From Candidatus Promineifilaceae bacterium (GTDB lineage Bacteria; Chloroflexota; Anaerolineae; Promineifilales; Promineifilaceae): a stretch of DNA of 64,000 nucleotides. Made by a program: the position numbers and the translations under genes. The notes below the pieces were generated by a model. It made no database searches. It was not told the origin of the DNA and worked only from the letters and a program-made list of their open reading frames with translations. Position 1 is the first letter of the stretch. Every line of letters begins with the position of its first letter. The DNA lies in NCBI GenBank assembly GCA_041570195.1, contig JBFFWQ010000018.1, positions 466-64,465 on the forward strand, given 5' to 3'. This document shows positions 6,843-54,562 of this stretch, piece by piece.

Positions 6843-8369
6843 CTACTGATGTCCACGTGGCTGCATCACCTCACGCGGCAAGTAGATGTTGAACTCCCGG
6901 CGAATTTGATCGTCGATTTCTTCGGGGACGATTTCTTGAAACTGGTTAAGTAGGATCTCGCGCGCTTGCCGGCGGGCTCGCTCGCGCATATCGAGGGCCC
7001 CTGCTGCTTCCCAATCGTCCCTGGAGCCGCGATCAACCGAGTGTGGATAATGATATTCGCTTTCCATCAGGGCTAGCGTCTGTGAATGGCCGAGGTAGTG
7101 ACCTTCGCCATTGCAGACATCGTGAATGACATCCAGGGAGAGTGACTCCTCGGTCACTTCCAGGCCACACACCAAGCGCATGGCCTGACCGTTGATGTCG
7201 TCGTCGATGATATATTGCTCGTAGGCCACTGTCAGCATCGACTCTAGCATGCCGGCCGAATGGTGATTGAATTGCGCCCCGGCCAGGGCGACGGCGGCCG
7301 TGGTTAAACCCTTTTCGAATCCCGACTGCACGTCAGGCACTTTACTATCAGTCAGAGCCGATGAACTGTAAACCGGCAGTCCGTAGAAGTGGCTCATTTG
7401 AGCTGAAGCAGCGTTCATCAAAGCCAATTCGGCCGTGCCACCGATCATGCCGCCCGTGCGCAGGTTGGAGACCAGGGGCATGCCACCCATCAGAATTGGA
7501 TGGCCCGACCGCAGTAACTGGACGTAGGTAATGCCGGCCAGTTCCTCGGCCACCACCTGGACCAGGGCGCCCACCAACGAGGCTGGGGCCGTAGCTCCAG
7601 CCTGTGGGGCAGATACCAGCGACACCGGAATACCAGCCCGCACAGCGGCCGTCAACGTTTCGACGGTCTCCTTGGCGAAGCGAAGCGGGCTGACCATGAA
7701 ACCCAGGTTAAATGATAAGAACGGCCGATCCAGGAATGCCTTTTCCCCACCGGCCAGCAGGATGCCTAAACGCTTGATATCAGCCACTTTCTCGGCGTAA
7801 TAGCAGCCGCCCATGACATGCTTGTTGGTGGCCGTCAAACAGGCGTAGAAGGTGTTCACGTCGATATCTTCGTTGGGTACGTCCCGGGCAACTACCGGAC
7901 GCAAATAGAAGTGGATATTGTCCAACGTCTCGACCAACCGGCCGATGTCGTATAAGTCGCGTACAACCGTCTCTCTGGCCCGACCTGTTTCCAGATCCAA
8001 TACGTTGACGGCCGCGCCGCCGGTGCCTAAATGCACCCGTCTACCTCGGAGATGCAAATCTGTCCGGCCGTCCCTGCTGTACAGTATGCAATCCTTGTTC
8101 ACGCCTGCCAGGGCCCGCTCAACAATTTCACGGCGGAAGAAGACCCGGTCACGGGCTTTATCCACTCGCATGCCCGCCTGCGCCAGGATATGGCGGCACT
8201 CAGATTCCAGCACCTCCACGCCCGTTCTTTCGAGGACCGCCAGGGCCGCTTCATGAATGCGCCGCACGTCAGCGTCGGCCAGCGGCTTGTATTGCCCACC
8301 CTCCAGGCCCGGCGGTAGATAGTTCACTTTTCGTCGCTCGTGTCGTCTTGAACGCTTCTCTCGTCTCAT
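6843..8369 (-). CDS. MttB-family (COG5598) methyltransferase, non-pyrrolysine type (paralog 1)
   Basis: 508-aa uninterrupted ORF with an Arg-rich N-terminus. Motifs [19 protein letters not shown] and [17 protein letters not shown]. Closest by eye to paralog 2. Confidence 0.9.
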   Translation of the reverse strand: MRREKRSRRHERRKVNYLPPGLEGGQYKPLADADVRRIHEAALAVLERTGVEVLESECRHILAQAGMRVDKARDRVFFRREIVERALAGVNKDCILYSRDGRTDLHLRGRRVHLGTGGAAVNVLDLETGRARETVVRDLYDIGRLVETLDNIHFYLRPVVARDVPNEDIDVNTFYACLTATNKHVMGGCYYAEKVADIKRLGILLAGGEKAFLDRPFLSFNLGFMVSPLRFAKETVETLTAAVRAGIPVSLVSAPQAGATAPASLVGALVQVVAEELAGITYVQLLRSGHPILMGGMPLVSNLRTGGMIGGTAELALMNAASAQMSHFYGLPVYSSSALTDSKVPDVQSGFEKGLTTAAVALAGAQFNHHSAGMLESMLTVAYEQYIIDDDINGQAMRLVCGLEVTEESLSLDVIHDVCNGEGHYLGHSQTLALMESEYHYPHSVDRGSRDDWEAAGALDMRERARRQAREILLNQFQEIVPEEIDDQIRREFNIYLPREVMQPRGHQ

Positions 8370-8442
8370 TCCATTTGGCCTTTGAAACTCATTCGACCCG
8401 CTGTTCCTTCTCGCCGATATCAGCTGGCCACATCATTTCGAG

Positions 8443-9828
8443 TCAAACAAAAACGACCGGAGCCTGGACTGCCGCTAACCCTTCGGCAACGCCTGCATCG
8501 CCGCCTGACACCGTGACATGCGCTCCGCAAGCTAGCGCACGGCGGGACGCAGCGCCAGACGATGTGTCGTCCCTTAAGAAATAGACCCGCAGACGGGTGC
8601 TGCCGTCCCGTAACAGCCGGATCTTGTCCTCGTCATCCAGGTAGTTTTGGTCAACGCGGGCCGTTGGGATGGCCTGTTGGGCGACGACCGGCCAGGGCAG
8701 GGCCAGATAGTCTACCACTGTCTCAAGCCAGCTATTGTGGGTATGCTGCCGGCCCATTTCCAGGCTCCGGCCGCCCCAGGATCGATCGCCGCCATCGTAA
8801 GCAGCGAATTTGACCACCCAGTCATCCTTCTCGTCGATTATCCTTGTTGAACTTTCCTCTGTAAGAAGTATCGTTCGCGGAATGCAGCGATCCAGCACGC
8901 TTAGGTCCTTCTCGTCTAGTTGTTGGCGAATCTGCGGTAGCTCTAACGCAGCCATCAGGGTCTTGTTCTCCAAAAAATAGATGTTGGGATTGAGCGACTT
9001 AGCCCCGTTCAGCTGCCATTGTTGAAAGTTTCGCAGCCTGGTCTCCGAAAAACAATCGAAGTAACCGAAACGAAAAACAACGGTGTCATCGACATCTGAG
9101 GGCCATTCCTGGTCATCAGGCCACATGAACTGTTCCAGATGATGGCTCCGCACCCGGCCGATAATGTCGCCGTTCCAATTCTGGGGTTTAGAAGGAATGC
9201 CAAAGATAGGCGGTTGCCAACGCTCCCCCTGGCGTACTTCCTTGGCCAGCACAGTCAGGGGCACATCATAGAGGACCCGGCCGGTTCCACCAGCATCCTC
9301 CAACGCCCGGCAGAAAGCTAATTGTTCAAAAAGAAACTCGCTCCAGGCCTGGGTTCCGGCGAATAAAAAACAACGACCGGCCAGATAACGGACGAAACCA
9401 TCGGCCAAGTCGGTCGCCAGCCCATAGGCCGTTTGCATGGCGTGAGCGAAACCGTGGGCCGAAGGGCATATCTCTAACTCGGTTACCATTAGCTGGTAGG
9501 ATGAATCATCCCCGTCGACCGGGCACAGTTGAAAATCAGGACGTAGCGACTCAACGCGACCGCCAGCGACAAAGCGCGGGATATGTTTAGGCACCTTGAA
9601 TTCCAGCAACTCCATCAATCGGCGACTTGACCCGCGCCGGTATGAGTCGACGACGACATCAAAAAAGGAGAATAGCGCCGGCCCGATCGCTTCGAGCTGT
9701 TGGGCAACTTGTTTAGACAGCTCAAACGGTTCACAGGCCGGCCGCCACCACACGCCGTCGACCCCGGCAAAGCCGATGCCGGTGTTATCCAATCTTCGTC
9801 GCAACCCGTTTTGTACCTGCAATGCCAC
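8443..9828 (-). CDS. hypothetical protein, possibly ATP-grasp-like ligase fold
   Basis: 461-aa ORF in the operon. Weak resemblance to circularly permuted / glutathionylspermidine-synthase-type ATP-grasp (LRPDFQLCPVDG...MVTELEICPSAHGF; VVKFAAYDGGDRSWGGRS). No confident family. Confidence 0.55.
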   Translation of the reverse strand: MALQVQNGLRRRLDNTGIGFAGVDGVWWRPACEPFELSKQVAQQLEAIGPALFSFFDVVVDSYRRGSSRRLMELLEFKVPKHIPRFVAGGRVESLRPDFQLCPVDGDDSSYQLMVTELEICPSAHGFAHAMQTAYGLATDLADGFVRYLAGRCFLFAGTQAWSEFLFEQLAFCRALEDAGGTGRVLYDVPLTVLAKEVRQGERWQPPIFGIPSKPQNWNGDIIGRVRSHHLEQFMWPDDQEWPSDVDDTVVFRFGYFDCFSETRLRNFQQWQLNGAKSLNPNIYFLENKTLMAALELPQIRQQLDEKDLSVLDRCIPRTILLTEESSTRIIDEKDDWVVKFAAYDGGDRSWGGRSLEMGRQHTHNSWLETVVDYLALPWPVVAQQAIPTARVDQNYLDDEDKIRLLRDGSTRLRVYFLRDDTSSGAASRRALACGAHVTVSGGDAGVAEGLAAVQAPVVFV

Positions 9829-9848
9829 GTTATCGGACCGCGTGAGCT

Positions 9849-10706
9849 TTAAAATGCCTGTTGATAAAGGTTCTTGAAATCAGCCTCGCCTACCAATCCC
9901 CGATTGGTTGGCCAGTTTCCGTCAAGATGGTAAGCGTTCTCAGCCATGGGCGGGATCATCTCCTCGGTTAAACCCACTTCATGTAGTCGGGAAGGCAAGC
10001 CGATATCGCCAATGAGCTCCTCCACGGCCGTCACCGCTCGTTCCGCCCATTCTCGCCGGCCTCGTTCGGTTTCCGAGCCGCCTTGTCCGCCCAGGCCCTC
10101 AAGGGCAGCGCCGATGTCCCCAGAACGCTCGATGGCTCCTGGCAGACTAAAGGCCATTTGGTAGGGCAGCATCAGGGCGATGGCAACGCCAGGTTGCGTA
10201 GCGGTAAACGACGATAGTTGGTGGGCCAGAGAGTGGCAGGCGCCTAACCATTTGGAGCTGATAACTATGCCGGCGATCATCGAAGCCAACATCATGTCTC
10301 GCCTTGCCGTTCGATTGCTAGGCTGGGCAACGGCGAGACGGAGGCTGCCGCCTATCAGCTCTATGCCGTACAAGATCATAGGATCCAGCGCCGGGTTCTG
10401 CTTGGTCGACACATAAGCCTCGATGCAGTGCGAAAGAGCATCCTTTCCAGTTGCCGCCGTAGCCGCATCTACCGAGCCAATATCAGGGTTGGCCGGAATC
10501 TTAGCGTAGCACGTGTATGGTAGTCTGGTAGCGTCCAGGGAATCGATGACCGGTTCAAGTAACCGGGCGGAAATGATGCCTGGGTCGGTTAGGATGAAGA
10601 CGCTATTTGCCCTGAGCGCCCGGGCTTCCTGGCCCACCTGCCCAACCGCACCAATACCAAAATGTGTCGGCCCAGGCCATAGGTAGGTTGAGATACTCTC
10701 TGCCAT
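9849..10706 (-). CDS. iron-containing alcohol dehydrogenase family, internally deleted (likely degenerate or pseudogene)
   Basis: The Fe-ADH N-terminus (HFGIGAV...VFILTDPG...ANPDIGSV) joins directly to the helical-domain motif TGKDALSHCIEAY. The GGGS and PTTAGTGSE region (~100 aa) is absent. The last metal His appears replaced (ATQPG). Start chosen at ATG 10706 (AAGGA 8 nt upstream). Confidence 0.6.
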   Translation of the reverse strand: MAESISTYLWPGPTHFGIGAVGQVGQEARALRANSVFILTDPGIISARLLEPVIDSLDATRLPYTCYAKIPANPDIGSVDAATAATGKDALSHCIEAYVSTKQNPALDPMILYGIELIGGSLRLAVAQPSNRTARRDMMLASMIAGIVISSKWLGACHSLAHQLSSFTATQPGVAIALMLPYQMAFSLPGAIERSGDIGAALEGLGGQGGSETERGRREWAERAVTAVEELIGDIGLPSRLHEVGLTEEMIPPMAENAYHLDGNWPTNRGLVGEADFKNLYQQAF

Positions 10707-10755
10707 AGAATTCATCCTTGCTAAAGGCAGCAAACTTATTGCTGGTCGAGACGAA

Positions 10756-11934
10756 CTAGGAAATCGAACCGATGCCATATGCGCCGTGAAGTTCCTGGCC
10801 GGCATTGAATCGGTCCACAGCATAGATATCGATGGGTACGCGAGGCGCCTGGCCCAATATGGTTTGCGCAAGACCTTCGCCAATGGTGGGGGCCAGCTTG
10901 AAGCCATGTCCGCTGAAGCCGGTCGCTACGAATAATCCTTCATGGCCTGGCACCGGACCGACCAGGGGGTTCCAATCGGGGGTGATATCGTATGGGCCCG
11001 TCCAACCGGAGATATATCGCCCTTCTTTAAAGGCCGGCATCCGGTTTGAGATGAGCCTGTCAATGCGCGTGACGTGCTCCAAATCGACGCGGTCGCGCAG
11101 GGTATCAGGGTCTTCAATCGGATCGCCATGGTCGCCCGTGCCAACCAACACGACGCCGCCCGTTTCCGGCCGGAAGTAGATCTTATCGGGCGTCGTTAGA
11201 TCCTTGACGATGGGCCAGTCGGGCTGGTAGCGTTGGTCGATCTTGAGAGTGATGACCTTGTGCCGGCTGACCTCGTAAGGAAAGCTTACGCCAATCATAC
11301 GCCCAAGTTGATTGACCCATGGGCCCGCCGCCAATACCACAACCGGGCCTTCGTAGGCGACATTTGTAGTATGTACCATCTTGGTCGCCCCGTTCAAGTC
11401 AATGCCGGTGACGGCTGCGCCAGTCTCTATGCCAACTCCCAAATCCTTGGCGCGCCGCGCATAAGCGGTTGTGGTCAGATATGGGTCGGCATAGCCAGCC
11501 ATCGAATCGTAACCAATCACGTCGACGTCCTCAACCTGAATCAGGGGGTGGACGTTTCGCGCCTCGGCCGGGCTCATGATGGCCGTATCGATATCATAGG
11601 CCTTTTGTTTGCGAAAGACCGCCATCATTGGTTCGCGGTGCTCTGCTGGACCAAGGATCAAGTAACCGGTCCGGCGCCAGCCCACGCTCCCGCCCACGAT
11701 TTCATCAAAGTTGGCGAAGACCTTCAGGCTCTCAACCGCATGAAGTAAATTGGCCTCAATAGAATAATGGGTGCGGACGATGGCGCATGATTTCGCCGTC
11801 CCTCCAGAGCATATTTCGCCCCGCTCCAGCACGACAACATTCCTGGCCCCGTTCTGTGCCAGATTGCACGCCACGCTGCAGCCCACCACCCCACCGCCGA
11901 TTACGATAAAGTCTGCCGTCTTGGTCTTGCTCAT
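10756..11934 (-). CDS. FAD-dependent oxidoreductase (DAO family; sarcosine oxidase beta / D-amino-acid oxidase-like)
   Basis: Dinucleotide motif DFIVIGGGVVGCS...VVVLER. ATG at 11934 has AAGGGA upstream. An alternative TTG start lies at 11958. Confidence 0.8.
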   Translation of the reverse strand: MSKTKTADFIVIGGGVVGCSVACNLAQNGARNVVVLERGEICSGGTAKSCAIVRTHYSIEANLLHAVESLKVFANFDEIVGGSVGWRRTGYLILGPAEHREPMMAVFRKQKAYDIDTAIMSPAEARNVHPLIQVEDVDVIGYDSMAGYADPYLTTTAYARRAKDLGVGIETGAAVTGIDLNGATKMVHTTNVAYEGPVVVLAAGPWVNQLGRMIGVSFPYEVSRHKVITLKIDQRYQPDWPIVKDLTTPDKIYFRPETGGVVLVGTGDHGDPIEDPDTLRDRVDLEHVTRIDRLISNRMPAFKEGRYISGWTGPYDITPDWNPLVGPVPGHEGLFVATGFSGHGFKLAPTIGEGLAQTILGQAPRVPIDIYAVDRFNAGQELHGAYGIGSIS

Positions 11935-11972
11935 ATTTCCCTTCTTGCTCTTCGGCAACTGCCGCTGTCAGT

Positions 11973-13286
11973 TTACATCCATGGAAACGGTGCGTTTGAC
12001 TTCGGCAGCGCCCTTTGCCCCTCAAAACGACTATAGGCGAAGGGTGCCAACAGTTCACTTGACTTGCCGGTCAGGATGCCGGCCACTTGTTCGCCAACGC
12101 CAATCATTTTGAAGCCATGATTCGAGTCGGCAATGACATATACATTGGGGCGCATGAAGTCAAATATCGGGAAGTTGTCGGCCGAAAAAGCCCCCACGCC
12201 ACCAGAAGGTACTTTGGAAGCAAACCGGCGCTTGCCCTCATAGCGCTTCATGCAGTGAGCTAGCGAGGCCACCCAAAGATCGTAAAACTTAGCGTCAACA
12301 CAATAATAGGGGCTGCGCGTGCCATAGGGATCGACGGCGATATCAGATCCGACGTTAACAGGTACCGCTCCGCCCTGTACGGAATGCTTGTCGCGCTTAA
12401 CGTAAATGCCCCAGGGCCGGTCCCACACCAACTGGCCGTCTTCGCCATACAATGGCACGTCGCTATCAACATGAATCAAGGGAGGACGTTGGCCATCGTC
12501 GGTAATGTGGATATAGGGATTCACCTCAATCTCGCCCTCCCTTAGAGCGAGGAAACGCCATAATTCCGTCTTTTGTCCTGGCTCTTGGGGATCGGGCACA
12601 TCCTGCGGGAGGGCCAGTAGATTCCAAAGCTTCTTGATCCACGGACCGACGGCGACGATCACATGACCAGCTTCCAAGTTGCCAAAATCTGTTTCTACGA
12701 CGGTGACATTACCGCTGCTGCTGAACTGAAAGCCAGTTACCTCTGGGCCAACAAGCAACTGAACATCTTCTCGCTCAGCTTTAATGGCCAGGCCATGGAT
12801 CGCCTGGCGGCTCCAGGCGTGCCCGCCCCGATGTTCGTGTAACAGCACTTCCAGTCTTTCGGCCCGCCAATCGTAGAAGATGTTCTGCATGTATCGCTTG
12901 ACTTCACGTTCGCCGACCACGAGCGTGGAGGGGTAACCCAGCTCTTGATGGCGCCTATGAACAGTTTCCAACCCCTCCCGCATGGGGGCGAAAGATGCGG
13001 TCAGGTAGCCGACCGAGTTATAAGCGAAATAGTCGGGATCCGATTCCCAAATATCCATGCAGTGTATCATCAAGCGTGTCATCGGCTCCTGATAATAGTT
13101 GCAGCGCACATTGCCGCATGCTACGCCCGAGGCGCCGGCGGCAATGCTACTCTTCTCGACTACCAGGATATCTTCGCCACCACCCTGCCCGTTGGCCTTC
13201 AGGTATTTGGCCAGGTGATAAGCGGTGGACAAACCATGAACGCCAGCTCCAATGATCAGGTACTCAACTTTCTTTGGTAATGCCAT
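11973..13286 (-). CDS. FAD-dependent oxidoreductase (DAO family), paralog of 41311-42645
   Basis: 437 aa. EYLIIGAGVHGLSTAYHLAK...VVEK. Colinear by eye with the 41311-42645 product from the N-terminus to the C-terminal ...PFPWM / ...HSPWV. Confidence 0.8.
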   Translation of the reverse strand: MALPKKVEYLIIGAGVHGLSTAYHLAKYLKANGQGGGEDILVVEKSSIAAGASGVACGNVRCNYYQEPMTRLMIHCMDIWESDPDYFAYNSVGYLTASFAPMREGLETVHRRHQELGYPSTLVVGEREVKRYMQNIFYDWRAERLEVLLHEHRGGHAWSRQAIHGLAIKAEREDVQLLVGPEVTGFQFSSSGNVTVVETDFGNLEAGHVIVAVGPWIKKLWNLLALPQDVPDPQEPGQKTELWRFLALREGEIEVNPYIHITDDGQRPPLIHVDSDVPLYGEDGQLVWDRPWGIYVKRDKHSVQGGAVPVNVGSDIAVDPYGTRSPYYCVDAKFYDLWVASLAHCMKRYEGKRRFASKVPSGGVGAFSADNFPIFDFMRPNVYVIADSNHGFKMIGVGEQVAGILTGKSSELLAPFAYSRFEGQRALPKSNAPFPWM

Positions 13287-13342
13287 TCAATTCACTCCTG
13301 AAAACAGCTAGCGCGGCCGCTACCGTTCAAATTCCGCGAGGA

Positions 13343-13816
13343 TCACGCCGCAATCGGGGCCAACTGGGCGCCGCTCACTGAAATCAGATCTTGAGGATCC
13401 AATTCGAGGCCGGCCAGCGGATCGCCGCTACTGATATTAACCATCTTGCAGCGCCCGATCGCCTCGTCAAAAATCACCGGCACATCTTCGGGCAAGCAGA
13501 CTGGCGCAACCGCGCCCTGCAGATAGCCTGTTTTCTGGTAGATCTCATCGGCCGAGGCAAATCTGAGCCTGGCCCATTCACCGCCTAGATAGGCGCGCAC
13601 GGCCTTGGGATCTAGACGAGCATCGCCAGTGACACAGGCCATCACATAGTGGTGGTTCTTGTCGCGTAGTAAAATTGACTTCACCATCTCTTCCTTGACA
13701 ACGCCACGTTGGGCGGCCGCGGCCGCCACAGTGTAAACCGGCTCATCGTGCGGCAGTAGACGAAAGAGTATATTCTTACTCTCCAACAGGCGGATGACTT
13801 TCGTGTCCGGGTTCAT
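13343..13816 (-). CDS. YbaK/ProX-type aminoacyl-tRNA-deacylase-like domain protein
   Basis: 157 aa from MNPDTKVIRLL. The pattern VKSILLRDKNHHYVMACVTGDARLDPKAV...GAVAP is YbaK/EbsC-like. The ATG at 13816 overlaps the upstream TGA (ATGA). Confidence 0.75.
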   Translation of the reverse strand: MNPDTKVIRLLESKNILFRLLPHDEPVYTVAAAAAQRGVVKEEMVKSILLRDKNHHYVMACVTGDARLDPKAVRAYLGGEWARLRFASADEIYQKTGYLQGAVAPVCLPEDVPVIFDEAIGRCKMVNISSGDPLAGLELDPQDLISVSGAQLAPIAA

Positions 13817-15195
13817 TGATCCATTGTATCGGATCGTTGGGCGAGGAGCTGGCCCAGAAAACTGATATCCGGCAGCTCCGCAACACGCCAAATCGTCAAT
13901 TCGAGCTCTGTCAACCTCTCTTGCGACAGGCACGCGCTCGCCAACCAGCGAAACTTCTCGCGCAATACGTCATCGGTCGGCGGATATTCCGCCCCCCAAT
14001 CCGCCTCAACCTCGCCCGTGTCGAACATGGAACCATCTCTGGTCCTGATTTGAACCTGGGCGATTCTTTCAGCTGGGAAGCGAGCACTAAAACCACTATC
14101 TTCCACCAGTTCTACCCGTTCCGCTAATTGGTTCACGAGCGGATGAAGCAAACCTTGACCACTTAACTCGTCCGGCCCAAGTTGCCGGTGAACCAGGGCG
14201 GCCGCTACCGGAAACGGCAGACTATACTGGGCAACCTCTGTGCTTTCTGGGTGAGCGTCCTTCAACCGTACAGCCTCGTGAAAGGTGGCTACCCGGATGC
14301 GCTGGATGGTTTGCGGATCAAGGTCATGCTGTTTCTGTAGCATAAGAACGCCAGTAATCGCCGGCTGGGCCCAGCGACAGACGGCGAATGGCTTGAAGTA
14401 TTGCTCGGCGATCAGCCATCTATCCCCTAAATCAGCCCAAAATCGGCCGATTTCTTTTGCCTCCACCGTCAGGGAAGGCGCGCCCGAGAAACCGTCGCCG
14501 GCCAACAAGGCCGCGCTCACGCCGGTCATGGCGCCCCAGCCTGAGCCATCTTTTAGCATCGTCGGGTGATCAATACAGCGCATCATTTGGGAACGCGGGC
14601 CATGGTACTCGGCGATTCCAAGGGCATGTCGGGTCTGGTCCTCGTTAAGTCCAAGACGCCGGGCGATGATAGCCGCACAGCCAAGGGCATTCCAGGCCCC
14701 AGAAGTGTGATAATCACATGCCGTGGCATGCAGGGCTAGACCGGCTCTCAGAGCGATTTGGTAGCCCACCGTCAGGGCAGCTAAGAATTCTTGGCCGCTG
14801 ATCGGCTCATTTAAGACTATTGTCGAAAAGTTTGCAGGAACCAAAGCTGCGCCAGCGTGCCCCTTGGTCAGGGTGAAACCGTCGTGGATGTCCAGGGCAT
14901 CAATGGTCATGCCGTTGGCCAGCGCAGCGCCTGGCGGCGAGACCGGCCGTCCATCCACCCACAACTGGGCCCCAACACCGGCATATGTCGAGGCGCAAAA
15001 ATCGTGGATTATCTGGGAGAGCCTGGTCTGCCGCCCACCAACAGCAGCGCCCAGAGTATCGAGCAAGCAGCGCCGCGCCTGGCTCTGAATCGGGAGCGGC
15101 AGATCGTCCCAATTAGTTTCGTGAATGAATTCCGTTACCCGCAACGATGTTTCGGCACGCTTCAAACCATTTCGCCTCGACAATGTCAGCGACAC
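13813..15195 (-). CDS. MmgE/PrpD family protein (2-methylcitrate dehydratase-like)
   Basis: 460 aa with a GTG start. N-terminus VTEFIHETNWDDLPLPIQSQARRCLLDTLGAAVGG is typical of MmgE/PrpD. Confidence 0.85.
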   Translation of the reverse strand: MSLTLSRRNGLKRAETSLRVTEFIHETNWDDLPLPIQSQARRCLLDTLGAAVGGRQTRLSQIIHDFCASTYAGVGAQLWVDGRPVSPPGAALANGMTIDALDIHDGFTLTKGHAGAALVPANFSTIVLNEPISGQEFLAALTVGYQIALRAGLALHATACDYHTSGAWNALGCAAIIARRLGLNEDQTRHALGIAEYHGPRSQMMRCIDHPTMLKDGSGWGAMTGVSAALLAGDGFSGAPSLTVEAKEIGRFWADLGDRWLIAEQYFKPFAVCRWAQPAITGVLMLQKQHDLDPQTIQRIRVATFHEAVRLKDAHPESTEVAQYSLPFPVAAALVHRQLGPDELSGQGLLHPLVNQLAERVELVEDSGFSARFPAERIAQVQIRTRDGSMFDTGEVEADWGAEYPPTDDVLREKFRWLASACLSQERLTELELTIWRVAELPDISFLGQLLAQRSDTMDQ

Positions 15196-15399
15196 TTAAG
15201 GTATTCTCGCGGAGATTGAATCCCCCGGCAAGTGCAGGGAAGCAGTTATAGTGATGCGGAACCGGTAATTAGGGCCGGCGTGGAAGCGATCGGCGATCTC
15301 CGACCGAGGGAAGAGAAGTAGCCTACTGAGCCACAAATGGCCATCTAAACATAGTCTGTCCATATCGGAGAATGCGTTTTTTACGGACATAGTATCAGG

Positions 15400-16344
15400 T
15401 CAGTAATTGAAGTGAGGCAGGAGCTCACTGGCCAACAAATCCAGGGAGTCCAAGTCGTCCAGGTCGTTATGCTGCAGCATGAATCGTTCGATGCCGGCCT
15501 CGACGAAGGCCATGACTTGGTCCATCAACTGCTGGGGGCTGCCTCCCAGATAACCGGTTGCCAGCCAGTCCGGGAGGGTTGCCGGTAGGCTTGGGAACAC
15601 TGACCGGTGGGCGTCGATACGATTCTGAATGACCAGTTCGTTCCGTCCAATGACAAATGGGATCATCAACGAGCGCTTCAAAGTGGCCGGATCGCGGCCG
15701 ATAGCCTGGCAATTCTCATCTAGCTGGGCTGACTTCTGGCGAAAGAGCTCGATTCGCTCGTAGGAGAAATTCCATTCTGTGGCTTGCCGGGCCACGATTT
15801 GCAGTGTTTTCTTGCCCTTGCCGCCCATGATGATTGTTGGGTTGGCTCGTACCGGTTCAGGATGCGTTTCGGCCTTGGCCAACTGAAAATGCTTGCCCTC
15901 ATAGCTGGCTGGTCGGCCCGTCCACAGGAGCTTGATCACCTGTGCACCTTCATCCAGCATCTCCAACCGGTCTTTGTAAGGCGGGTAATTGACACCAAAC
16001 ATGCGGTGCTCGCCGCCAAACCAGCCAGCTCCCAAGCCTAAGTCTAATCGGCCGCCAGATAGCTGGTCCACGGCGGCCGCCATTTTGGCCAGCATGATCG
16101 GGTGACGAAAGGTTATTGGACAGACCATCGGTCCAAAGCGAATGCGCTTGGTCCGCATTGCCAAAGCCGTAAGGGATGGCCAAAGCGCCAGGGAGGTGCG
16201 CTGGGGAAATCCCTCCAGGGCCGTCAAGTGATCGGAACGAAACAATGAGCCGAAGCCAACTCCTTCCACCGTCTCGGCCATCTTGAAGAACCGTTCCCAG
16301 GTCAAATCTTCCTGACCTTCGATCATGATGCCTATCTCAGCCAT
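15400..16344 (-). CDS. LLM-class (luciferase-like) flavin/F420-dependent oxidoreductase
   Basis: Start at MAEIGIMIEGQ (ATG 16344, 8-nt overlap with the upstream stop). FGSLFRSDHL and LDLGLGAGW motifs of luciferase-like monooxygenases. Confidence 0.8.
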   Translation of the reverse strand: MAEIGIMIEGQEDLTWERFFKMAETVEGVGFGSLFRSDHLTALEGFPQRTSLALWPSLTALAMRTKRIRFGPMVCPITFRHPIMLAKMAAAVDQLSGGRLDLGLGAGWFGGEHRMFGVNYPPYKDRLEMLDEGAQVIKLLWTGRPASYEGKHFQLAKAETHPEPVRANPTIIMGGKGKKTLQIVARQATEWNFSYERIELFRQKSAQLDENCQAIGRDPATLKRSLMIPFVIGRNELVIQNRIDAHRSVFPSLPATLPDWLATGYLGGSPQQLMDQVMAFVEAGIERFMLQHNDLDDLDSLDLLASELLPHFNY

Positions 16345-23551: not shown

Positions 23552-23577
23552 TGGCTTCCTCCGTCACTTACCGTGAC

Positions 23578-35021: not shown

Positions 35022-35056
35022 AGTGTACTGTATTGTACCAGGTTCGAGGCCATCAC

Positions 35057-44815: not shown

Positions 44816-44859
44816 CGTTTTCCTCGTTGCAGTTGCCTGCGCCAGTGGCCGAACATCAC

Positions 44860-45699
44860 TTATCGTAATGCATCATTGCCATTGCCCGGTATCGATACAT
44901 CGCTCACGCTGCGACGCTGGCCAAATCCCATCTCGGCCGAGATCGTTTGCGCCGTTTCTTGTAAGGGATTTATGAAGCTTTCCACGATCCCAGGTCCCAT
45001 GCGGTAGGTCGGCCCAGAGACAGATACGGCAGCCACAGCCTGACCTTCATGATTGAATATAGGCGCAGCGATGCCACTGAACCCCGCTTCGAACTCCTCA
45101 TGCACAATGGCGTATCGTTGCAGCCGGATTTCTTTCAGGATATTGATGAGCGTTTGGTCGTCAGTCACCGTCTGGCTTGTGTACTTCACCAAAGGCAGTG
45201 CGAGCCTGACGGAACGTTCCCTGTCTGGCAAATAGGCCAACAGCACTTTTCCGGCCGCCGTACAATGCAAGGGCGTGCGCCGACCGATCCATCCTTCGTA
45301 GCGGATCGGTTGGGGGCTGCGCGCCCGTTCGATGTTCACACATTCATGACCTTCTATTACGGTGATGTTTACTGTTTCCTGCGTAGATGCCACCAAGTCA
45401 TTCAGATAAGGCTGGGCCACTCCGCGCACGTCCAGTCGCCCCAAAGCCACTCCGGCCAGGCCGATCAATCCTAATCCCAGCCGGTACCTCCCCGATTCTG
45501 GATTTCGACTAACCAGGCCACCTGCTTGCAGTGTCGCCAAGATGCGGGAAACGGTGCTTTTGTGCAAGCCAAGGCGATGGGCCAGTTCGGTCACGCGAAG
45601 TTCAGGCTCGTACTCAGTGAAGCTGCGCAGAATAGCTATCGCCCGCGCGACTGATTGGACGCTTTCAGTCGTCCTCGGCTTATCTTTAGGCATCGGCAA
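44860..45699 (-). CDS. IclR-family transcriptional regulator
   Basis: 279 aa. SVARAIAILRSF...LRVTELAHRLGLHKSTVSRILATLQAGGLV plus an IclR effector domain. Confidence 0.9.
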   Translation of the reverse strand: MPMPKDKPRTTESVQSVARAIAILRSFTEYEPELRVTELAHRLGLHKSTVSRILATLQAGGLVSRNPESGRYRLGLGLIGLAGVALGRLDVRGVAQPYLNDLVASTQETVNITVIEGHECVNIERARSPQPIRYEGWIGRRTPLHCTAAGKVLLAYLPDRERSVRLALPLVKYTSQTVTDDQTLINILKEIRLQRYAIVHEEFEAGFSGIAAPIFNHEGQAVAAVSVSGPTYRMGPGIVESFINPLQETAQTISAEMGFGQRRSVSDVSIPGNGNDALR

Positions 45700-49617: not shown

Positions 49618-49770
49618 CAGCCCGTTGGTTTCGAGCCCTGAACGCCTGCATTTACGCGGTTCCAAAGGACCCTCTGGCCAGATGAACGGCTACAGCGATG
49701 TTCGGGGCATGGCCGTCAGCCCCAATGTGGTCGGCAAGTGATCCCGTGACCGGGGCGCCTCAATATCGTC

Positions 49771-50649
49771 TCATGTCTCGCCTGCCTCGCGCTTCCGGCG
49801 GGCGCGAAACGCCTTGATCCAATTCATGCCGTAGTCATCACGGCCCATTGCCAAATCGGCAGCCAGAATCGCCGTGATTATCTCCTTCACCAGAGGATTG
49901 GTGATCGGGCAGGTCAGGCCAGCATGGATGGCCATGGCAATGAACGCAGCGTTGACGTATTTGCGATCGGGTAGGCCAAAGGAGATATTGCTGGCGCCCA
50001 TCGTCACGTTAACGCCAAACTCTTTCACGACCAACATGATCGTCTCCAGGGAAACTCGGCCGGCGCTGCTGTCAGCTCCCATAGTCAAGGCCAGGGGATC
50101 GACAACGATATCCTCGGGCGGAATACCTAGTTGACCTGCGCGCTCAATGATCTTTCCGGCGACCGCCAGCCGCTTCTCGGGCGTCTCCGGGATGCCCTCG
50201 TCATCCATACACAAACCAATGACTGCGGCCTCATGTTCTTTGACCAACGGCAAAATCGCTTCCAGGGATCGCTCTTCGCCATTGACCGAGTTCACCAGAG
50301 CCTTGCCCTCATACAACGAGAGGGCGGCAGCCAGCGCATCTGGATCGGCCGTGTCAATGCACAAGGGCACGTCTGTCACTTCCATCACGGTACGCATTAC
50401 CTGGCCGAGCAAGACGGGTTCGTCCGCGCTCGGCACGCCAGCATTCACATCCAAGATTACAGCGCCGGCCACAACCTGGCTCAAGGCATCCTGGCGCACA
50501 ATATCGAAATTCCCGTCCTGTAAAGCAGCCAGGACTTTCTTGCGGCCGGTCGGGTTGATTCGTTCGCCGATGACTGAAGTCGGTCCAGTGCGGCTAATCT
50601 CCACCGTCTTTGTCTTGGATGCAACTATCGTTCGTAAGTTATTTGGCAT
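49771..50649 (-). CDS. methyltetrahydrofolate:corrinoid methyltransferase (pterin-binding), copy 2
   Basis: Start at ATG 50649 (GAGG 6 nt upstream). VIGERINPTGRKK, ILDVNAG, ALVNSV, GASNISFGLP. Colinear with copy 1. Confidence 0.85.
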   Translation of the reverse strand: MPNNLRTIVASKTKTVEISRTGPTSVIGERINPTGRKKVLAALQDGNFDIVRQDALSQVVAGAVILDVNAGVPSADEPVLLGQVMRTVMEVTDVPLCIDTADPDALAAALSLYEGKALVNSVNGEERSLEAILPLVKEHEAAVIGLCMDDEGIPETPEKRLAVAGKIIERAGQLGIPPEDIVVDPLALTMGADSSAGRVSLETIMLVVKEFGVNVTMGASNISFGLPDRKYVNAAFIAMAIHAGLTCPITNPLVKEIITAILAADLAMGRDDYGMNWIKAFRARRKREAGET

Positions 50650-50787
50650 TCTCCACCTCAAACGGATCAGTTAACGACTACGAATTGTTATCTCTTTTCT
50701 CGTGGTTTGATCGGGGCTGCCGATCGATAGATCTCCAGGTCCTATGTCCGTTCGGACTTCTTGCCCTGGTTTTTCCCGGCTTTCGAA

Positions 50788-53010
50788 TCACGTGTTTAGA
50801 TGCGTTTTGGATCCCTGATTGGCAGCATTACCCTGGCCGCGTTTAACCACGTTACACATTAAGGCCTTGTATACCGGAAAACCGGAAATTGGATCGCGAT
50901 TATCGAAGTCCGTCAATTGGTTGACGTTGCCACGTTGCCAGTCCACCGGCCCAACCGGACCCCCACCGCCCATATTCACTTCGACAACTCCGGGTACGAT
51001 ATGTTCCGTCACGTGAGCCCTAAATGGCGCCCTGCCTCGAGGAGAGAGTACGTAGACAGGATCTCCATCCACTATTCCCCTGGCATAGGCATCTTCTGGG
51101 TGTAGGTGAACCAGCGGGAAGGGTTGTTTAGCTGCCAAGGAAGGTATATTGTGGTGCTGAGAACGGAAGGCGGTCTGGGTTCGGGCGCCGGAATTAAATA
51201 CAAGCGGGTATTTCCGGGAGATTTCTGGCGCAGCCAACGGACCCTCAATGGGTTCGGTATAGGCCGGCAAAGGATCATATCCATTTTGCCGGAACCATTC
51301 CGAAGCAACTTCGAACTTTCCTGTTGGCGTATTGAAGCCCGGCGCGCCATCGGCCCGCAGTAAGCCTGCTTCATATTTGCGAAAGATCATGGCCGGCACG
51401 TCGAATGGCAAACCCTCAGGAAACTCGCGCAAGGCTTCCAGGGTAAAACCATTGTCGCCCAACGCGTCTCTTATCATGCCCTCTTCCGTTTGCGGCCAAA
51501 GCTGCCCATAACCTAAGCGGCGAGCCAATTCGGAGAATATCAGGTAATCGTTACGAGCCTCGCCGACCGGCTCAATCACCTTTTGCCTGAGTTGAATATA
51601 ACCATCGTGAATCATGTACGATTCAATCTCAAACATGGTCGTGGCTGGCAAAAGGATATCGGCGTAGCGGGCATCAGCCGTAGGGAAACGATTGACGATC
51701 ACCAGGAAATCGAGCGCCGCTAGCGCCCGGCGCCACAAGTCAGGATTAGGCCACGATGTAATGAGCGATGAGCCGCTGATGATCAAGGCCCGCACGGGGT
51801 AAGGATCATCCTCCAAGATAGCCCGGGGCAACAGGGCTGCATGGGCCTCCTTACGAACCTCGTAGTACAGCGGATATTCGTCGGCGCCAAGGGGTTTAGG
51901 CGAATCAAGTGGCAAAGGGGTCAAGATGCGGTTGAGCTGCAAACGGTCCGGCATCTTAAACAATTTGCCGCCCGGCACGTCCAGATGACCGGCGATGGCC
52001 TGCAGCGCCCATACCGCCCGAATTGCCTGGACCCCACCATTGGAATACTCCAGGCCAGTATAGGTTAGAATCGAGCATCCTTCTGCCTGGCCGACAGCCC
52101 TCGCTAACTCACGGATTCGATCGGCCGGCACCCAGCTGATTTGTTCAACACGCTCAGGGGTGAAGGCAGCCACATAGTCGCGCAATGCACGAAAACCATG
52201 CACCCATTGTTTGACGAAGGGAAGATCGTACAGTTCGTCAGCGATCAAGACGTGAATCATGGCCAGAGCCAGTGCGCCATCGGTTCCCGGCCGGATGCCT
52301 ATCCATTCGGCCCGCATGGCCTGGGCAGTTTCGCTGCGGCGATGATCAATGACCACGACCCGCGCACCACTGCGCTGGGCTCTCATAAGCCGGGGCAGAT
52401 TAATGGGCGACGAATCCGTGGTTGGGTTTTCACCCCAGACAAGGATCAGATCGGCCTGGTCGATATCCTCGACCATGTTACGCATATACTCACCAAAACA
52501 CGCGCGAGACGCGATCATGCCGTAGGCTGCATAACAAAGCGAGCCGACACCGCTTGCGTTGGGGGAACCAAAGGGAAACAAGACGGCATTGGCCGACGAT
52601 TCGACGGTTCCTTCAGGAGCAAATGCTTCATTTAGGCCGTATTCGAAGTTCCCCCGGCCGGTGTAGATACAGACGGACTCAGGACCGTGCCGCCTGGCGA
52701 TTTGATGCAGATTGTCGACGATTGCCTCATAGGCCACATCCCAGGTGATTCGCTCGAATAGCTGCTGGTCGCGCGCACCATTTCGCCTTTGCGGGAATAG
52801 GATTCGGTCAGGTGAATACACGATCTCCCGAGCATGCATACCCCGGGGGCAGACGATGCCTTGAGGATGTTCTTTGATGGGAGTTAGCCGGTCGATCTTG
52901 CCGTCGACTTTGTGGACATGCACACCACAGCCTGCCGGACAGATACCACATATGCTGGCGACCACTTCTTCGACCGGTGTTGTCGCGATGATGCTTTCAA
53001 TTAATTCCAC
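50788..53010 (-). CDS. molybdopterin (bis-MGD) oxidoreductase, cytoplasmic, substrate unknown
   Basis: 740 aa. N-terminal Fe-S motif CGICPAGCG...C. Typical MopB-family and C-terminal molybdopterin-binding patterns. No twin-arginine leader and no in-frame stop. Confidence 0.85.
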   Translation of the reverse strand: MELIESIIATTPVEEVVASICGICPAGCGVHVHKVDGKIDRLTPIKEHPQGIVCPRGMHAREIVYSPDRILFPQRRNGARDQQLFERITWDVAYEAIVDNLHQIARRHGPESVCIYTGRGNFEYGLNEAFAPEGTVESSANAVLFPFGSPNASGVGSLCYAAYGMIASRACFGEYMRNMVEDIDQADLILVWGENPTTDSSPINLPRLMRAQRSGARVVVIDHRRSETAQAMRAEWIGIRPGTDGALALAMIHVLIADELYDLPFVKQWVHGFRALRDYVAAFTPERVEQISWVPADRIRELARAVGQAEGCSILTYTGLEYSNGGVQAIRAVWALQAIAGHLDVPGGKLFKMPDRLQLNRILTPLPLDSPKPLGADEYPLYYEVRKEAHAALLPRAILEDDPYPVRALIISGSSLITSWPNPDLWRRALAALDFLVIVNRFPTADARYADILLPATTMFEIESYMIHDGYIQLRQKVIEPVGEARNDYLIFSELARRLGYGQLWPQTEEGMIRDALGDNGFTLEALREFPEGLPFDVPAMIFRKYEAGLLRADGAPGFNTPTGKFEVASEWFRQNGYDPLPAYTEPIEGPLAAPEISRKYPLVFNSGARTQTAFRSQHHNIPSLAAKQPFPLVHLHPEDAYARGIVDGDPVYVLSPRGRAPFRAHVTEHIVPGVVEVNMGGGGPVGPVDWQRGNVNQLTDFDNRDPISGFPVYKALMCNVVKRGQGNAANQGSKTHLNT

Positions 53011-53068
53011 TACCGATCCTTCAAAGCTCAGAATTCTGGGGCCTTATTGCAGCCGTTTTCTATACCTC

Positions 53069-54562
53069 TCATGTCGTGTCCTCCTGCAGGATTCTTTCGA
53101 TTTCTCCATCGACCGAAGCAGGCACTTCCTGTATCTTGTGTTCGTCCAGGATGCCTATGGTTGTCTCCCGCAGAGTCGCGTTTATGTCCTTCGCTCCCTG
53201 ATCTTGCCAACGATCTAATCGCTGGCGGTTGAAGATCTGCGGCATCCATAACGCTCGCCAGTGATCCATCGTGTGTTTGTGACTCAAGAATTCTCCGCCA
53301 GGTCCGACATCATTGATAACATCAACGGCCAAAGCTTCCGCGTCGACGCGAACTCCTTCGGCGAATCGCCGGGTCATGGAGATGATCTCGTTCGTCAACA
53401 CCATCATCTCTGGCGAACCGGTCAAGCCGCTTTCTAGATAGCCCACATCGTGGTTGAGGTTGGTCCTGGACAGCAAAGCAACCAGGACAGCAAATTGGGC
53501 GTCGGCCGCGGCTTGGCCATCGATGACTTTGCTGTCACTATGCCCGGCATAACCCCACACGGGCAGACTATAGAAGCGGCCCATTTCGGCCGCCATTACC
53601 CGGGCGAGTTGGAATTCGGGCGCACCGTATACGCTGATCATCTCCTTCATATCCATGTGATGAACGCCATGTCCATAAAGGAAGGGGGCGCCAGGATTCT
53701 CAAGTTGGTGCATGACCAGGCTGCTGAGCACCTCGGCATTGCCCAGAGCTACCGCTCCGGCTAAGGTCACCGGGGCTGTCGCGCCCATCATTGGCGCCGG
53801 CGAGTGAGTGATTGGGATCTTATGCTTGGCACAAAAAAGGAGTTTTTCGGTTGCGTCCAGACTATGTCGGAGGGGTGTCGAAGGCTCGGAATAAAGCAAG
53901 ATGCTTGGATATTGAACAAGTTCGTCCAGACCGCCGGCGGCCGCGGCGGCCATGGACGTGATAGCTTCCATGTCGGCCTTCGTACCGCACACGACCACGA
54001 TGGGCTTGGTAGTATTGCGCAACATGGCAGCAAATTGGTATCGAAAATAGGTCGCTTCGGGCACATCTCGCGGCACGCCCAGCGACATCATGAAATGAAG
54101 TTCGGGTAGCGAATCGACCACCCTGGCACAATCGCCGATGTCTGCCAGGAGAAAATCACGACGAACTCCAGAGCGAGGATCTAGATAGCGAAAAGTGTCA
54201 GAGCCTGGGCCAAAATAGACACCCTTGCCATCCAACTTGATGGCCACCTGGTCGTTGCCTCGACTATAAAGATTGAATGATCCCGGAACAGTAGCCAAGG
54301 CCCACTCGACAAGAGAAGGTGGTATCTTCACCAGGTTCTCCTCGATCAGGGCTCCGGCCTGGTCCAGCAAGCGAATGGCGGCCGGGCTAAATACGCGGAC
54401 ACCTGTCTGCCGCAGAATCTCACAGGAGGCGCGATGAATGCGCAGGCAATCTTCGCGGCCCAACATGGAAAACCGCGGCCGTATGGGAGGCAGGTCACGT
54501 CGTGGTAGATCACGTGGTGAATGAGCTTGGGTCAACGGGTCATGGTGATGTCGGTCGTTCAT
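53069..54562 (-). CDS. MttB-family methyltransferase, non-pyrrolysine type (paralog 5, most divergent)
   Basis: Start at ATG 54562 (AGGAGG upstream); the ORF is open from TTG 54595. FGPGSDTF, NHDVGYLESGLTGS. Lacks the poly-Arg N-terminus of paralogs 1-4. Confidence 0.85.
   Translation of the reverse strand: MNDRHHHDPLTQAHSPRDLPRRDLPPIRPRFSMLGREDCLRIHRASCEILRQTGVRVFSPAAIRLLDQAGALIEENLVKIPPSLVEWALATVPGSFNLYSRGNDQVAIKLDGKGVYFGPGSDTFRYLDPRSGVRRDFLLADIGDCARVVDSLPELHFMMSLGVPRDVPEATYFRYQFAAMLRNTTKPIVVVCGTKADMEAITSMAAAAAGGLDELVQYPSILLYSEPSTPLRHSLDATEKLLFCAKHKIPITHSPAPMMGATAPVTLAGAVALGNAEVLSSLVMHQLENPGAPFLYGHGVHHMDMKEMISVYGAPEFQLARVMAAEMGRFYSLPVWGYAGHSDSKVIDGQAAADAQFAVLVALLSRTNLNHDVGYLESGLTGSPEMMVLTNEIISMTRRFAEGVRVDAEALAVDVINDVGPGGEFLSHKHTMDHWRALWMPQIFNRQRLDRWQDQGAKDINATLRETTIGILDEHKIQEVPASVDGEIERILQEDTT

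Follow-up and report, generated by a model that had tools for sequence, protein, structure and literature searches.

In Eubacterium limosum, the MtqC/MtqA/RamQ set serves MtpB, MtcB and MtyB, a sharing that has been shown biochemically, and it has been proposed that these hub genes respond to many quaternary amines and each MttB member to its own substrate (PMC8604678). A second system, MtgBCDE, has been tied genetically to growth on glycine betaine in Ruegeria (Mausz et al. 2025, PMC12478193), and as many as seven pfam06253 open reading frames (ORFs) are often found in bacteria that possess mtgC and mtgD, suggested to catabolise diverse methylated compounds via one MtgC (PMC12478193). The occurrence of mtgB beside mtgC had already been noted in surveys of Chloroflexi metagenome-assembled genomes (MAGs) (PMC6081815), and we found almost no open literature on MttB paralogs specifically in the Anaerolineae. 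Here we analyze a 64-kb stretch of a Candidatus Promineifilaceae genome (Chloroflexota; Anaerolineae; contig JBFFWQ010000018.1; hereafter the window) in which five MttB paralogs, M1 to M5, surround a single corrinoid protein, MtgC. We favor, with moderate confidence, the reading that this island is a multi-substrate hub-and-spoke system for the N-demethylation of quaternary amines which delivers methyl groups to tetrahydrofolate (THF).

The closest counterpart of the locus is the alphaproteobacterial MtgBCD(E) system of Ruegeria pomeroyi, Phaeobacter inhibens and Sinorhizobium meliloti, with which it shares the hub genes (MetF2 being the counterpart of MetV/MetF in the window), co-located genes for the demethylation of dimethylglycine and sarcosine, and several pfam06253 paralogs. 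The annotated S. meliloti locus comprises an ASKHA protein, a methyl-THF:cobalamin methyltransferase, a methylene-THF reductase (MTHFR), an MTHFR_C protein, a ‘virulence factor’, a DUF1638 protein, a cobalamin-binding protein and a divergent MttB gene; the ‘virulence factor’ lies beside the MTHFR_C gene, and bmt is found ~5.6 kb further downstream. Identities between the window and S. meliloti proteins are 69.5% for MtgC, 64% for MetF, 60% for MtgD (MtgD1 in the window), 49% for MTHFR_C, 45% for DUF1638 and 40% for the activase. Because the gene set is the same and the parts are 40–70% identical one by one, we take the window hub to be the Chloroflexota orthologue of the MtgBCDE locus system. 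Unlike the alphaproteobacterial loci, the host is a member of the Chloroflexota, the window has a short MetE-like gene instead of MtgE, its five paralogs belong to different clades and are gathered within 48 kb of the hub instead of being scattered, and anaerobe-type partners, namely a tungsten-type aldehyde:ferredoxin oxidoreductase (AOR) and a cytoplasmic Mo/W enzyme, are mixed in.

The E. limosum system resembles the window in having one hub and several substrate-specific MttB proteins without pyrrolysine (Pyl), that is MtpB, MtcB, MtyB and MthB (PMC8604678, PMC12155760, PMC13080624). However, E. limosum is a strict anaerobe and acetogen that channels methyl groups into the Wood-Ljungdahl pathway, and its components are located in separate clusters. 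Its MttB front ends are induced one by one. Among single enzymes, Desulfitobacterium hafniense MtgB (PDB 2QNE/9YCE; PMC13080624) is 45% identical to M3 and 42% to M4, with Leu or Phe at the Pyl-aligned position. Mutagenesis and a ligand-bound structure have shown that MtgB binds glycine betaine through cation-pi contacts of Y97 and F356 and holds its carboxylate by R312 and H348; R312L abolishes activity, and R312 is retained in MtcB, MtpB, MthB and MtyB (Picking et al. 2026, PMC13080624). In contrast to MtgB, all five window paralogs have replaced F356 (Met in M1 and M2, Gly in the others), and M3 and M4 have Trp at position 352. The Pyl-containing MttB of Methanosarcina barkeri (PDB 7XCL) belongs to the same fold family and is 36% identical to M2, and both M1 and M2 share its Gly and Tyr at the positions aligned with MtgB Y97 and R312. 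Unlike that enzyme, the window paralogs have no UAG codon and carry Leu, Phe or His at the Pyl site.

An earlier reading of the DNA without database searches (the sequence-only reading) had called a hub with this many spokes unusual, which the MtqC precedent in E. limosum (PMC8604678) and the up to seven pfam06253 ORFs per MtgC (PMC12478193) contradict. The E. limosum arrangement is exactly the hub-and-spoke logic which that reading had proposed, and since the shared-carrier layout is known from this species and from Alphaproteobacteria of sea and soil, it is no discovery here. The novelty lies in the lineage, in how tightly four pocket types cluster within 48 kb of the hub and in three uncharacterised clades whose cassettes are conserved.

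Clades and pockets of the five MttB paralogs

The five PF06253 (MTTB) ORFs encode proteins of 508–513 amino acids with E-values of 3e-93 to 1e-213, and their scores of 313–710 bits compare to a cut-off of 25, with the profile covered from about position 3–28 through 489–500 of 500 in each case. Alignment places the H-x-x-G-[MWY]-LE-[SA] core in all five, and none contains an in-frame TAG, TGA or TAA, in line with the five amber-free ORFs of the sequence-only reading. That reading had M5 running from 53069 to 54562; the gene is real, but the longest ORF begins at 54595, and M5 orthologues conserve residues from about 3–12 onward. Its three groups were also recovered, with M1 and M2 55.5% identical, M3 and M4 47.2% identical and every other pair, including all those with M5, at 29–34%. 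When scanned against NCBIfam, the five paralogs matched no subfamily-specific model; their sole match was TIGR02369, the equivalog of true trimethylamine methyltransferase, at 334–474 bits against a cut-off of 525. These scores, together with the lack of UAG, rule out the trimethylamine methyltransferase MttB proper.

To place the paralogs, a neighbor-joining tree (100 bootstraps) was built from 49 MttB ORFs of relatives’ loci, 17 database orthologues and, as its only references, three PDB-derived sequences, M. barkeri MttB, D. hafniense MtgB and 4yyc. The entry 4yyc is an uncharacterised ‘putative trimethylamine methyltransferase’ which we take to be an S. meliloti protein. Bootstrap support was 100 for M1 with M2, 100 for M3 with 4yyc, 99 for M3 with M4 and 100 for the M5 orthologue clade. 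The group of M3 and M4 joined D. hafniense MtgB with a support of 88, and both M1/M2 and M5 fell outside that grouping; M1/M2 with Pyl-MttB reached a support of only 30. M5 is a divergent paralog, at 27–29% identity to the reference proteins.

We mapped the pockets at six positions, those of MtgB Y97, R312, the Pyl site, H348, I352 and F356. In this order, M3 reads Y R F H W G, 4yyc Y R L H W G, M4 G R L H W G, M1 and M2 G Y L H M M, Pyl-MttB G Y Pyl Y M G and M5 S W H H Y G, and each of the four paralog signatures is invariant inside its own orthogroup. The residue aligned with Pyl in the M. barkeri structure is therefore encoded by a sense codon throughout, whether Leu (M1, M2 and M4), Phe (M3) or His (M5). 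Of the four glycine-betaine-binding residues Y97, R312, H348 and F356, M3 keeps three, as does 4yyc (Y, R, H, G), M4 keeps two (G, R, H, G) and the others one each (G, Y, H, M in M1 and M2; S, W, H, G in M5). H348 is thus retained in all five, and Y97 and R312 occur together only in M3. By these residues M3 is a plausible MtgB, and the other four are not. The paralogs fall into at least three, arguably four, clades with distinct clade-invariant pockets and with conserved cassettes of their own; in agreement with the sequence-only reading, they do not make up a single isofunctional clade. The separate clades, pocket signatures and cassettes of M1/M2, M4 and M5 argue for several substrates.

M3 is 53% identical to 4yyc and 52.6% to the MttB-family gene that neighbors MtgC in S. 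meliloti. Its database homologs exceed 8000 candidates, of which the top 120 are at least 70% identical and bear generic names, with no functional anchors. In the window, a GntR regulator, M3, a dimethylglycine dehydrogenase (DMGDH)-like enzyme and the beta and alpha subunits of an electron transfer flavoprotein (ETF) lead into the hub, with the sarcosine oxidase genes soxBDAG divergent from them; the same arrangement occurs in 6–8 related loci. In 13 loci, an M3 orthologue (at least 60% identity) is found no more than 10 kb from MtgC. Since Y97, R312 and H348 are kept, M3 clades with 4yyc and MtgB, and its synteny is with DMGDH and ETF, M3 looks like the glycine betaine enzyme of the aerobic type.

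Inside M2, M4 and M1, Rfam also reports matches to RF02510 (PYLIS_3), each beginning straight after the Pyl-aligned codon (Table 1). A relic recoding signal was considered and rejected, as the matches hold few base pairs, several of them non-canonical, and no UAG. With pairing sparse and partly broken and UAG absent, we attribute the matches to coding-sequence homology; the Rfam PYLIS_3 model can evidently fire on MttB genes that do not encode Pyl.

The hub and the question of a shared carrier

A six-frame phmmer scan of the window found one B12-binding corrinoid protein, one RACo-type activase, two pterin-binding methyltransferases and the five MttB ORFs, and so bears out the sequence-only reading, which had counted one corrinoid protein, one activase and two methyl-THF methyltransferases. 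The parts in that inventory were right, but it had missed the DUF1638 protein, the MetV/MetF pair and a small PF13769-type ORF. MtgC carries the D-x-H-x-x-G motif as DIHDIGKN. The second methyltransferase, MtgD2, matches MtgD1 at 302 bits and has orthologues at 72–75% identity in two related loci. In Ruegeria, the DUF1638 protein is induced on N-osmolytes and is predicted to aid cobalamin reactivation (Mausz et al. 2025, PMC12478193). At the position of the small PF13769-type ORF, two related loci have a gene called as a 64-amino-acid PF13769 protein (a weak match). No PF02574-type gene (MtgE, similar to betaine-homocysteine methyltransferase) was found among the window ORFs of at least 150 amino acids; it may be encoded elsewhere, and mtgE frequently lies apart from its partner genes (Mausz et al. 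2025, PMC12478193).

The locus itself is well supported. Its gene map is dense and nearly gap-free in both the ORF listing and the Pfam scans, and GC content is even at 53–58%. The same gene order is present on an independent 59.8-kb metagenome contig from the Joint Genome Institute (JGI) and on NCBI MAG contigs, so the locus is no assembly chimera; the identical corrinoid protein is encoded on the JGI contig and on contigs of two NCBI MAGs. MAGs GCA_041554855.1 and GCA_041558695.1 are among those with this locus. In a collection of species-representative genomes the best MtgC matches are 73–86% identical and nearly all labeled as Chloroflexota MAGs (Ardenticatenaceae, Promineifilaceae, Anaerolineales or Caldilineales), and 508 relatives were confirmed in total. 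We sampled 80 Chloroflexota MtgC loci (MtgC identity 73–86%); many of these contigs are short, so the counts of hub partners that follow are lower bounds. Scored over all 80 loci, the partners of MtgC were RACo in 58, where it adjoins MtgC, MtgD in 36, MetV/MetF in 34 and DUF1638 in 24, where it comes after MtgD.

The gene identities, clades, pocket residues and synteny are observed, and by analogy with the described systems, on which every activity, the substrates other than glycine betaine and the common use of the single MtgC are modeled, we propose that the island would work as follows. RACo, with ATP and a low-potential electron, would return the B12 cofactor of MtgC to Co(I), an MttB-family enzyme would transfer one methyl group from its substrate to Co(I)-MtgC, MtgD1 or MtgD2 would hand this methyl to THF, and MetV/MetF would oxidise methyl-THF to methylene-THF, with DUF1638 and the small PF13769-type protein as putative conserved accessories. 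M3 would turn glycine betaine into dimethylglycine, which the DMGDH-like enzyme and ETF would convert to sarcosine and SoxBDAG to glycine. M1, M2, M4 and M5 would be substrate-specific front ends for other methylated onium compounds: the flavin amine oxidase or dehydrogenase beside M1, M3 and M4 would take off the next methyl or alkyl group, M2 is accompanied by SoxBDAG, and M5 by the cytoplasmic Mo/W enzyme instead. The regulators, GntR for M2 and M3 and IclR for M4, would switch on the spokes singly; having more than one regulator agrees with front ends that are each induced separately and feed a shared back end.

Whether the five spokes converge on this one carrier can be judged in part from relatives. 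There, the M1, M4 and M5 cassettes mostly come without a corrinoid gene of their own, and the pterin methyltransferase and activase are normally elsewhere too. A corrinoid gene within 8–10 kb is absent in 10 of 11 M5-orthologue loci and in all M1 and M4 cassette loci examined, which fits a hub encoded in trans. The MtgC orthogroup of the hub (83–85% identity) adjoins M2 orthologues in two relatives (L018 and L102) and M3 orthologues in many other genomes. That all five paralogs use only this one MtgC is nevertheless a tentative proposition, to which we give somewhat less than an even chance.

Several observations weigh against the hub-and-spoke reading. As regards the carrier, a paralog of the broader M5 group stands between two MtgC-like genes (47%) in one locus (L017), in another (L088) the pair of M5 and Mo/W enzyme is immediately followed by an MtgC-like gene (49%), and one close Promineifilaceae MAG has two MtgC copies (84–86%; L018 and L021), one of them beside an M2 orthologue; moreover, the window spans 64 kb, so further corrinoid proteins may exist in the genome. 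As regards substrates, the F356 of MtgB is Gly in M3, which like 4yyc has a Trp at position 352, and the assignment of the aerobic-type MtgB rests on proteomics and locus genetics rather than enzymology (Mausz et al. 2025, PMC12478193). Because they lack the acid-binding Arg of the characterised quaternary-amine members, M1, M2 and M5 may not take betaines, and M1 and M2, with the same six-position signature, could be isofunctional. Finally, AOR is oxygen-sensitive and Sox is an oxidase; the whole island may not run under one condition.

The carrier observations lead to an alternative in which some paralogs, especially M5 and perhaps M2, use corrinoid proteins encoded outside the window, so that the single carrier is an artefact of where the window ends. 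The M5 string also owns a pterin methyltransferase, MtgD2, which favors this idea, as do the MtgC-like genes of L017 and L088 and the duplicated MtgC beside an M2 orthologue. Set against it are the corrinoid-free surroundings of nearly all M5 loci and of every M1 and M4 locus examined, and the fact that the MtgC found by M2 orthologues belongs to the hub orthogroup and is no specialised paralog. We consider an outside carrier rather unlikely. An improbable alternative is that some paralogs (M5, M1/M2) perform another reaction on the MttB TIM barrel, with a tertiary amine, N-oxide, sulfonium or non-methyl-transfer substrate linked to the Mo/W enzyme or AOR. This would account for the missing Arg in both groups, for the Pyl-site His, aromatic W/Y pocket and Mo/W partner in place of a flavin demethylase in M5, and for the Gly and Tyr that M1/M2 have in common with true Pyl-MttB. 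However, PF06253 is full-length with conserved core motifs, M2 orthologues directly adjoin MtgC, and the M5 orthologue of L088 by an MtgC-like gene, together with an M5 string that ends in MtgD2, points to corrinoid-dependent methyl transfer. Redundancy of all five enzymes for glycine betaine or close relatives (for dosage, affinity or oxygen regime), which would make this a single-substrate island, has in its favor that M2 and M3 flank one GntR and abut the glycine-betaine-pathway enzymes Sox and DMGDH, that two different pfam06253 proteins are raised on glycine betaine in Ruegeria (PMC12478193) and that H348 is kept in 5 of 5 paralogs, but it is very improbable given the 29–34% identity between groups, the joint presence of Y97 and R312 in M3 only when R312L kills MtgB activity, and clade-specific cassettes and regulators that move independently among genomes.

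A further MttB clade, 31–36% identical to M2 and with the signature S-G/A-L-N-L-L, is absent from the window and was seen just upstream of RACo-MtgC in some Anaerolineales MAGs (six such loci and others), where M3 sits elsewhere, and near MtgC in two further loci. It represents a sixth pocket type with the same hub family.

Conserved cassettes of the spokes

The features of the window are collected in Table 1.

Table 1. Features of the window, grouped by spoke and hub (positions count from the first letter of the window)
Feature	Position	Strand	Basis and remarks
M3, MtgB-type MttB paralog	28060-29592	+	PF06253 710 bits
GntR/FCD regulator	27250-28038	+	PF00392, PF07729; between divergent M2 and M3 operons
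DMGDH-like enzyme	29656-32172	+	DAO, FAO_M, GCV_T, GCV_T_C domains
ETF beta	32257-33021	+	ETF domain
ETF alpha	33024-34010	+	ETF domain
M2, M1/M2-clade paralog	25490-27022	-	PF06253 418 bits; stop codon overlaps DUF1638 start
DUF1638 protein	24894-25493	-	PF07796; away from rest of hub
soxB, soxD, soxA, soxG, heterotetrameric sarcosine-oxidase family	19671-24816	-	Pfam; SoxD as ORF
Protein of 1100 amino acids, between soxG and luciferase-like monooxygenase	16337-19639	-	Two SIS domains
M1, M1/M2-clade paralog with own cassette	6843-8369	-	PF06253 375 bits
AOR, tungsten type, downstream of M1	4895-6808	-	Pfam
MR_MLE enolase-superfamily enzyme, downstream of M1	3792-4955	-	Pfam
Zn-dependent alcohol dehydrogenase (Zn-ADH), downstream of M1	2670-3770	-	Pfam
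orf461, directly upstream of M1	8443-9828	-	461 amino acids
Fe-dependent alcohol dehydrogenase (Fe-ADH), two DAO flavoproteins, YbaK/ProX-type tRNA_edit, PrpD-like, luciferase-like monooxygenase, upstream of M1	9849-16395	-	Pfam, NCBIfam
YbaK/ProX-type editing protein	13343-13933	-	Free-standing
Small ORF, PF13769 (‘virulence factor’) type	34704-35021	+	Upstream of activase
RACo-type ATP-dependent reductive activase	35033-37087	+	Fer2, RACo_linker, Raco_middle, RACo_C_ter domains
MtgC, only corrinoid protein in window	37186-37872	+	PF02607 + PF02310
MetV-like protein	37891-38433	+	PF12225; methylene-THF reductase pair with MetF
MetF	38400-39407	+	PF02219
MtgD1, methyl-corrinoid:THF methyltransferase	39541-40443	+	PF00809, pterin-binding
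PhnD-like binding protein	40444-41247	-	Pfam, NCBIfam; end of M4 cassette
DAO flavoprotein	41311-42666	-	Pfam, NCBIfam; overlaps M4 stop
M4, MttB paralog, sister clade of M3	42638-44179	-	PF06253 639 bits
orf210	44183-44815	-	~210 amino acids, lineage-restricted; upstream in M4 cassette
IclR regulator	44860-45699	-	Upstream in M4 cassette
MtgD2, second pterin-binding methyltransferase	49771-50661	-	PF00809; last gene of M5 string
Cytoplasmic Cys-ligated Mo/W-bis(pyranopterin guanine dinucleotide) oxidoreductase	50788-53010	-	Molybdopterin, Molydop_binding, Fe4S4 domains
M5, divergent MttB paralog	53069-54595	-	PF06253 313 bits
Short MetE-like thiol methyltransferase, 369 amino acids	54815-55924	-	PRK06520/YxjG type, below cut-off
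Methylaspartate-ammonia-lyase-like (MAAL) protein	55983-57290	-	Pfam, NCBIfam, PDB
CBS protein	57752-58408	-	Upstream in M5 string
Opp-type ABC transporter	58411-63402	-	Upstream in M5 string
PYLIS_3 match inside M1	7256-7355	-	Rfam 38.8 bits
PYLIS_3 match inside M2	25894-25991	-	Rfam 56.7 bits
PYLIS_3 match inside M4	43044-43141	-	Rfam 41.7 bits
tRNA-Arg(TCT)	2540-2613	+	Rfam and ARAGORN
‘tRNA-Asp’, 94 nt	40392-40485	-	ARAGORN alone

M2, DUF1638 and soxBDAG form a unit divergent from GntR. In a relative, a 302-kb contig carries, in this order, MtgC (83%), an M2-like gene, SoxB, SoxD and SoxA, and then, running divergently, GntR, M3, several inserted genes, DMGDH and ETF; this contig also holds the M1 cassette of that relative, at a distance of 22 kb. 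The order M2-like-SoxB-D-A is that of L102, and in the close MAG of L018 the MtgC (85%) directly adjoins an M2 orthologue at 77%. M2 is 44% identical to an S. meliloti paralog that sits beside DMGDH-like flavoenzymes. The sequence-only reading was correct that the neighbors of the paralogs differ but had those of the first two swapped: AOR, enolase and alcohol dehydrogenase flank M1, and Sox flanks M2.

Orthologues of M1 are abundant in the Anaerolineae (72–89% identical), their generic names giving no functional anchor, and in three loci examined (L099, L100 and L101) the AOR, MR_MLE and Zn-ADH genes are kept after orthologues that are 75–77% identical. The upstream genes are kept more patchily: the pair of DAO flavoproteins, which are N-methyl-amino-acid-oxidase-like, is present in L100 (with fragmented DAO ORFs in L099), tRNA_edit and the PrpD-like gene recur in L099, and both L099 and L101 have the luciferase-like gene. 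The closest types to the enolase-superfamily protein are acid-sugar dehydratase and mandelate racemase, and it matches no equivalog. We considered M1 as a (hydroxy)proline betaine enzyme on account of its enolase, DAO and ProX-like neighbors and set this aside as unsupported, the enolase not being betaine-epimerase-like and the acid-binding Arg being absent. For orf461, searches of Pfam, NCBIfam and PDB returned no match; as none of the three M1-orthologue loci examined contains it, it probably lies outside the conserved M1 cassette. The YbaK/ProX-type protein recurs at four related loci; it comes directly after MtgC in three related loci (63–69%) and stands beside the PrpD-like gene in an M1-orthologue locus.

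M4 retains the acid-binding pair R312 and H348 of MtgB and lacks Y97, which suggests that its substrate would be a different acidic quaternary amine. The five-gene cassette IclR-orf210-MttB-DAO-PhnD-like is kept in two related loci and rearranged in a third, where the DAO gene comes directly after orf210; in all three of these longer contigs examined, orf210 stands between IclR and the M4-type MttB genes. No Pfam, NCBIfam or PDB sequence match was found for orf210, whose family consists of 91 homolog clusters, all of ~210 amino acids, with the few source-named members all from Chloroflexota. AlphaFold2 models it (pLDDT 87) as a tandem ferredoxin-like alpha+beta barrel, for which Foldseek returned weak matches only, to ABM/Dabb-type proteins (cofactor-free oxygenases or isomerases). 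The PhnD-like protein lacks both a signal peptide and a lipobox, and neither a permease nor an ATPase is encoded next to it; it could hint at a phosphonate- or phosphate-bearing quaternary amine as substrate, or at ligand binding in the cytoplasm. In a plasmid collection rich in Alphaproteobacteria, no homolog of M4 exceeded 46% identity, and none of M5 exceeded 34%.

Orthologues of M5 were found in 11 metagenome loci at 65–83% identity, and the Mo/W oxidoreductase adjoins them in 7 of these. This enzyme has an N-terminal 4Fe-4S motif, the ligand region ‘SLCYAA’ and no twin-arginine signal; in PDB it matches acetylene hydratase (224 bits) and PsrA (213 bits) best, and as all its NCBIfam matches are below cut-off it fits no curated subfamily. 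A formate dehydrogenase is rejected by the Cys-Tyr at the ligand site instead of Cys/Sec-His and by sub-cut-off scores to the formate dehydrogenase models, and an acetylene hydratase by the replacement of the catalytic Asp with Pro. Upstream of M5 orthologues, the MAAL, CBS and ABC transporter genes are found in 4–5 loci, where the MetE-like gene is not conserved. The MetE-like protein of the window retains the H-x-C, Glu and Cys ligands for zinc and homocysteine. ‘Core’ methionine synthases use methylcobalamin or corrinoid proteins (PMC7005905, PMC7857596), and the MetE-like protein could be such an enzyme, drawing methyl groups from methyl-MtgC as a MetE-type counterpart of MtgE.

The minus strand from 2670 to 27022 holds nineteen co-directional genes over 24 kb, from M2 down to Zn-ADH, with only one intergenic gap above 100 nt (15195–15400), which suggests one or two very long transcription units; the string mixes the oxygen-using Sox oxidase with the oxygen-sensitive tungsten AOR. 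Within it, the 1100-amino-acid protein has family matches confined to residues ~315–747, two SIS domains that correspond to the isomerase half of GlmS; a glutaminase domain is absent, and the ~310 N-terminal and ~350 C-terminal residues match no family. The window also contains a tRNA-Arg(TCT). The ‘tRNA-Asp’ has no Rfam support, overlaps the junction of MtgD1 and the PhnD-like gene and is probably a false positive.

The most novel piece of the locus is the pairing of M5 with the Mo/W enzyme. That at least one of the clades M1/M2, M4 and M5 acts on a substrate class new to the MttB superfamily is possible, if on balance unlikely, and the M5 clade is the strongest candidate, with no acid-binding Arg, with Trp, Tyr and a Pyl-site His in its pocket and with the Mo/W partner. 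If true, M5 and the Mo/W enzyme would make up a new two-enzyme route that links a non-carboxylated onium or N-oxide compound to the same B12 carrier. More broadly, the locus would extend the aerobic-type MtgBCD glycine betaine pathway to the Anaerolineae, which are common in sediments, sludge and soils and in which the hub is highly conserved: its genome matches number more than 500, and homologs of M3 and M1 run into the thousands. The four pocket signatures, each tied to a conserved cassette, provide a compact test set for the MttB superfamily, and the substrates of M1/M2, M4 and M5 would reveal which methylated nitrogen compounds, and what B12-dependent one-carbon flux, these bacteria handle.

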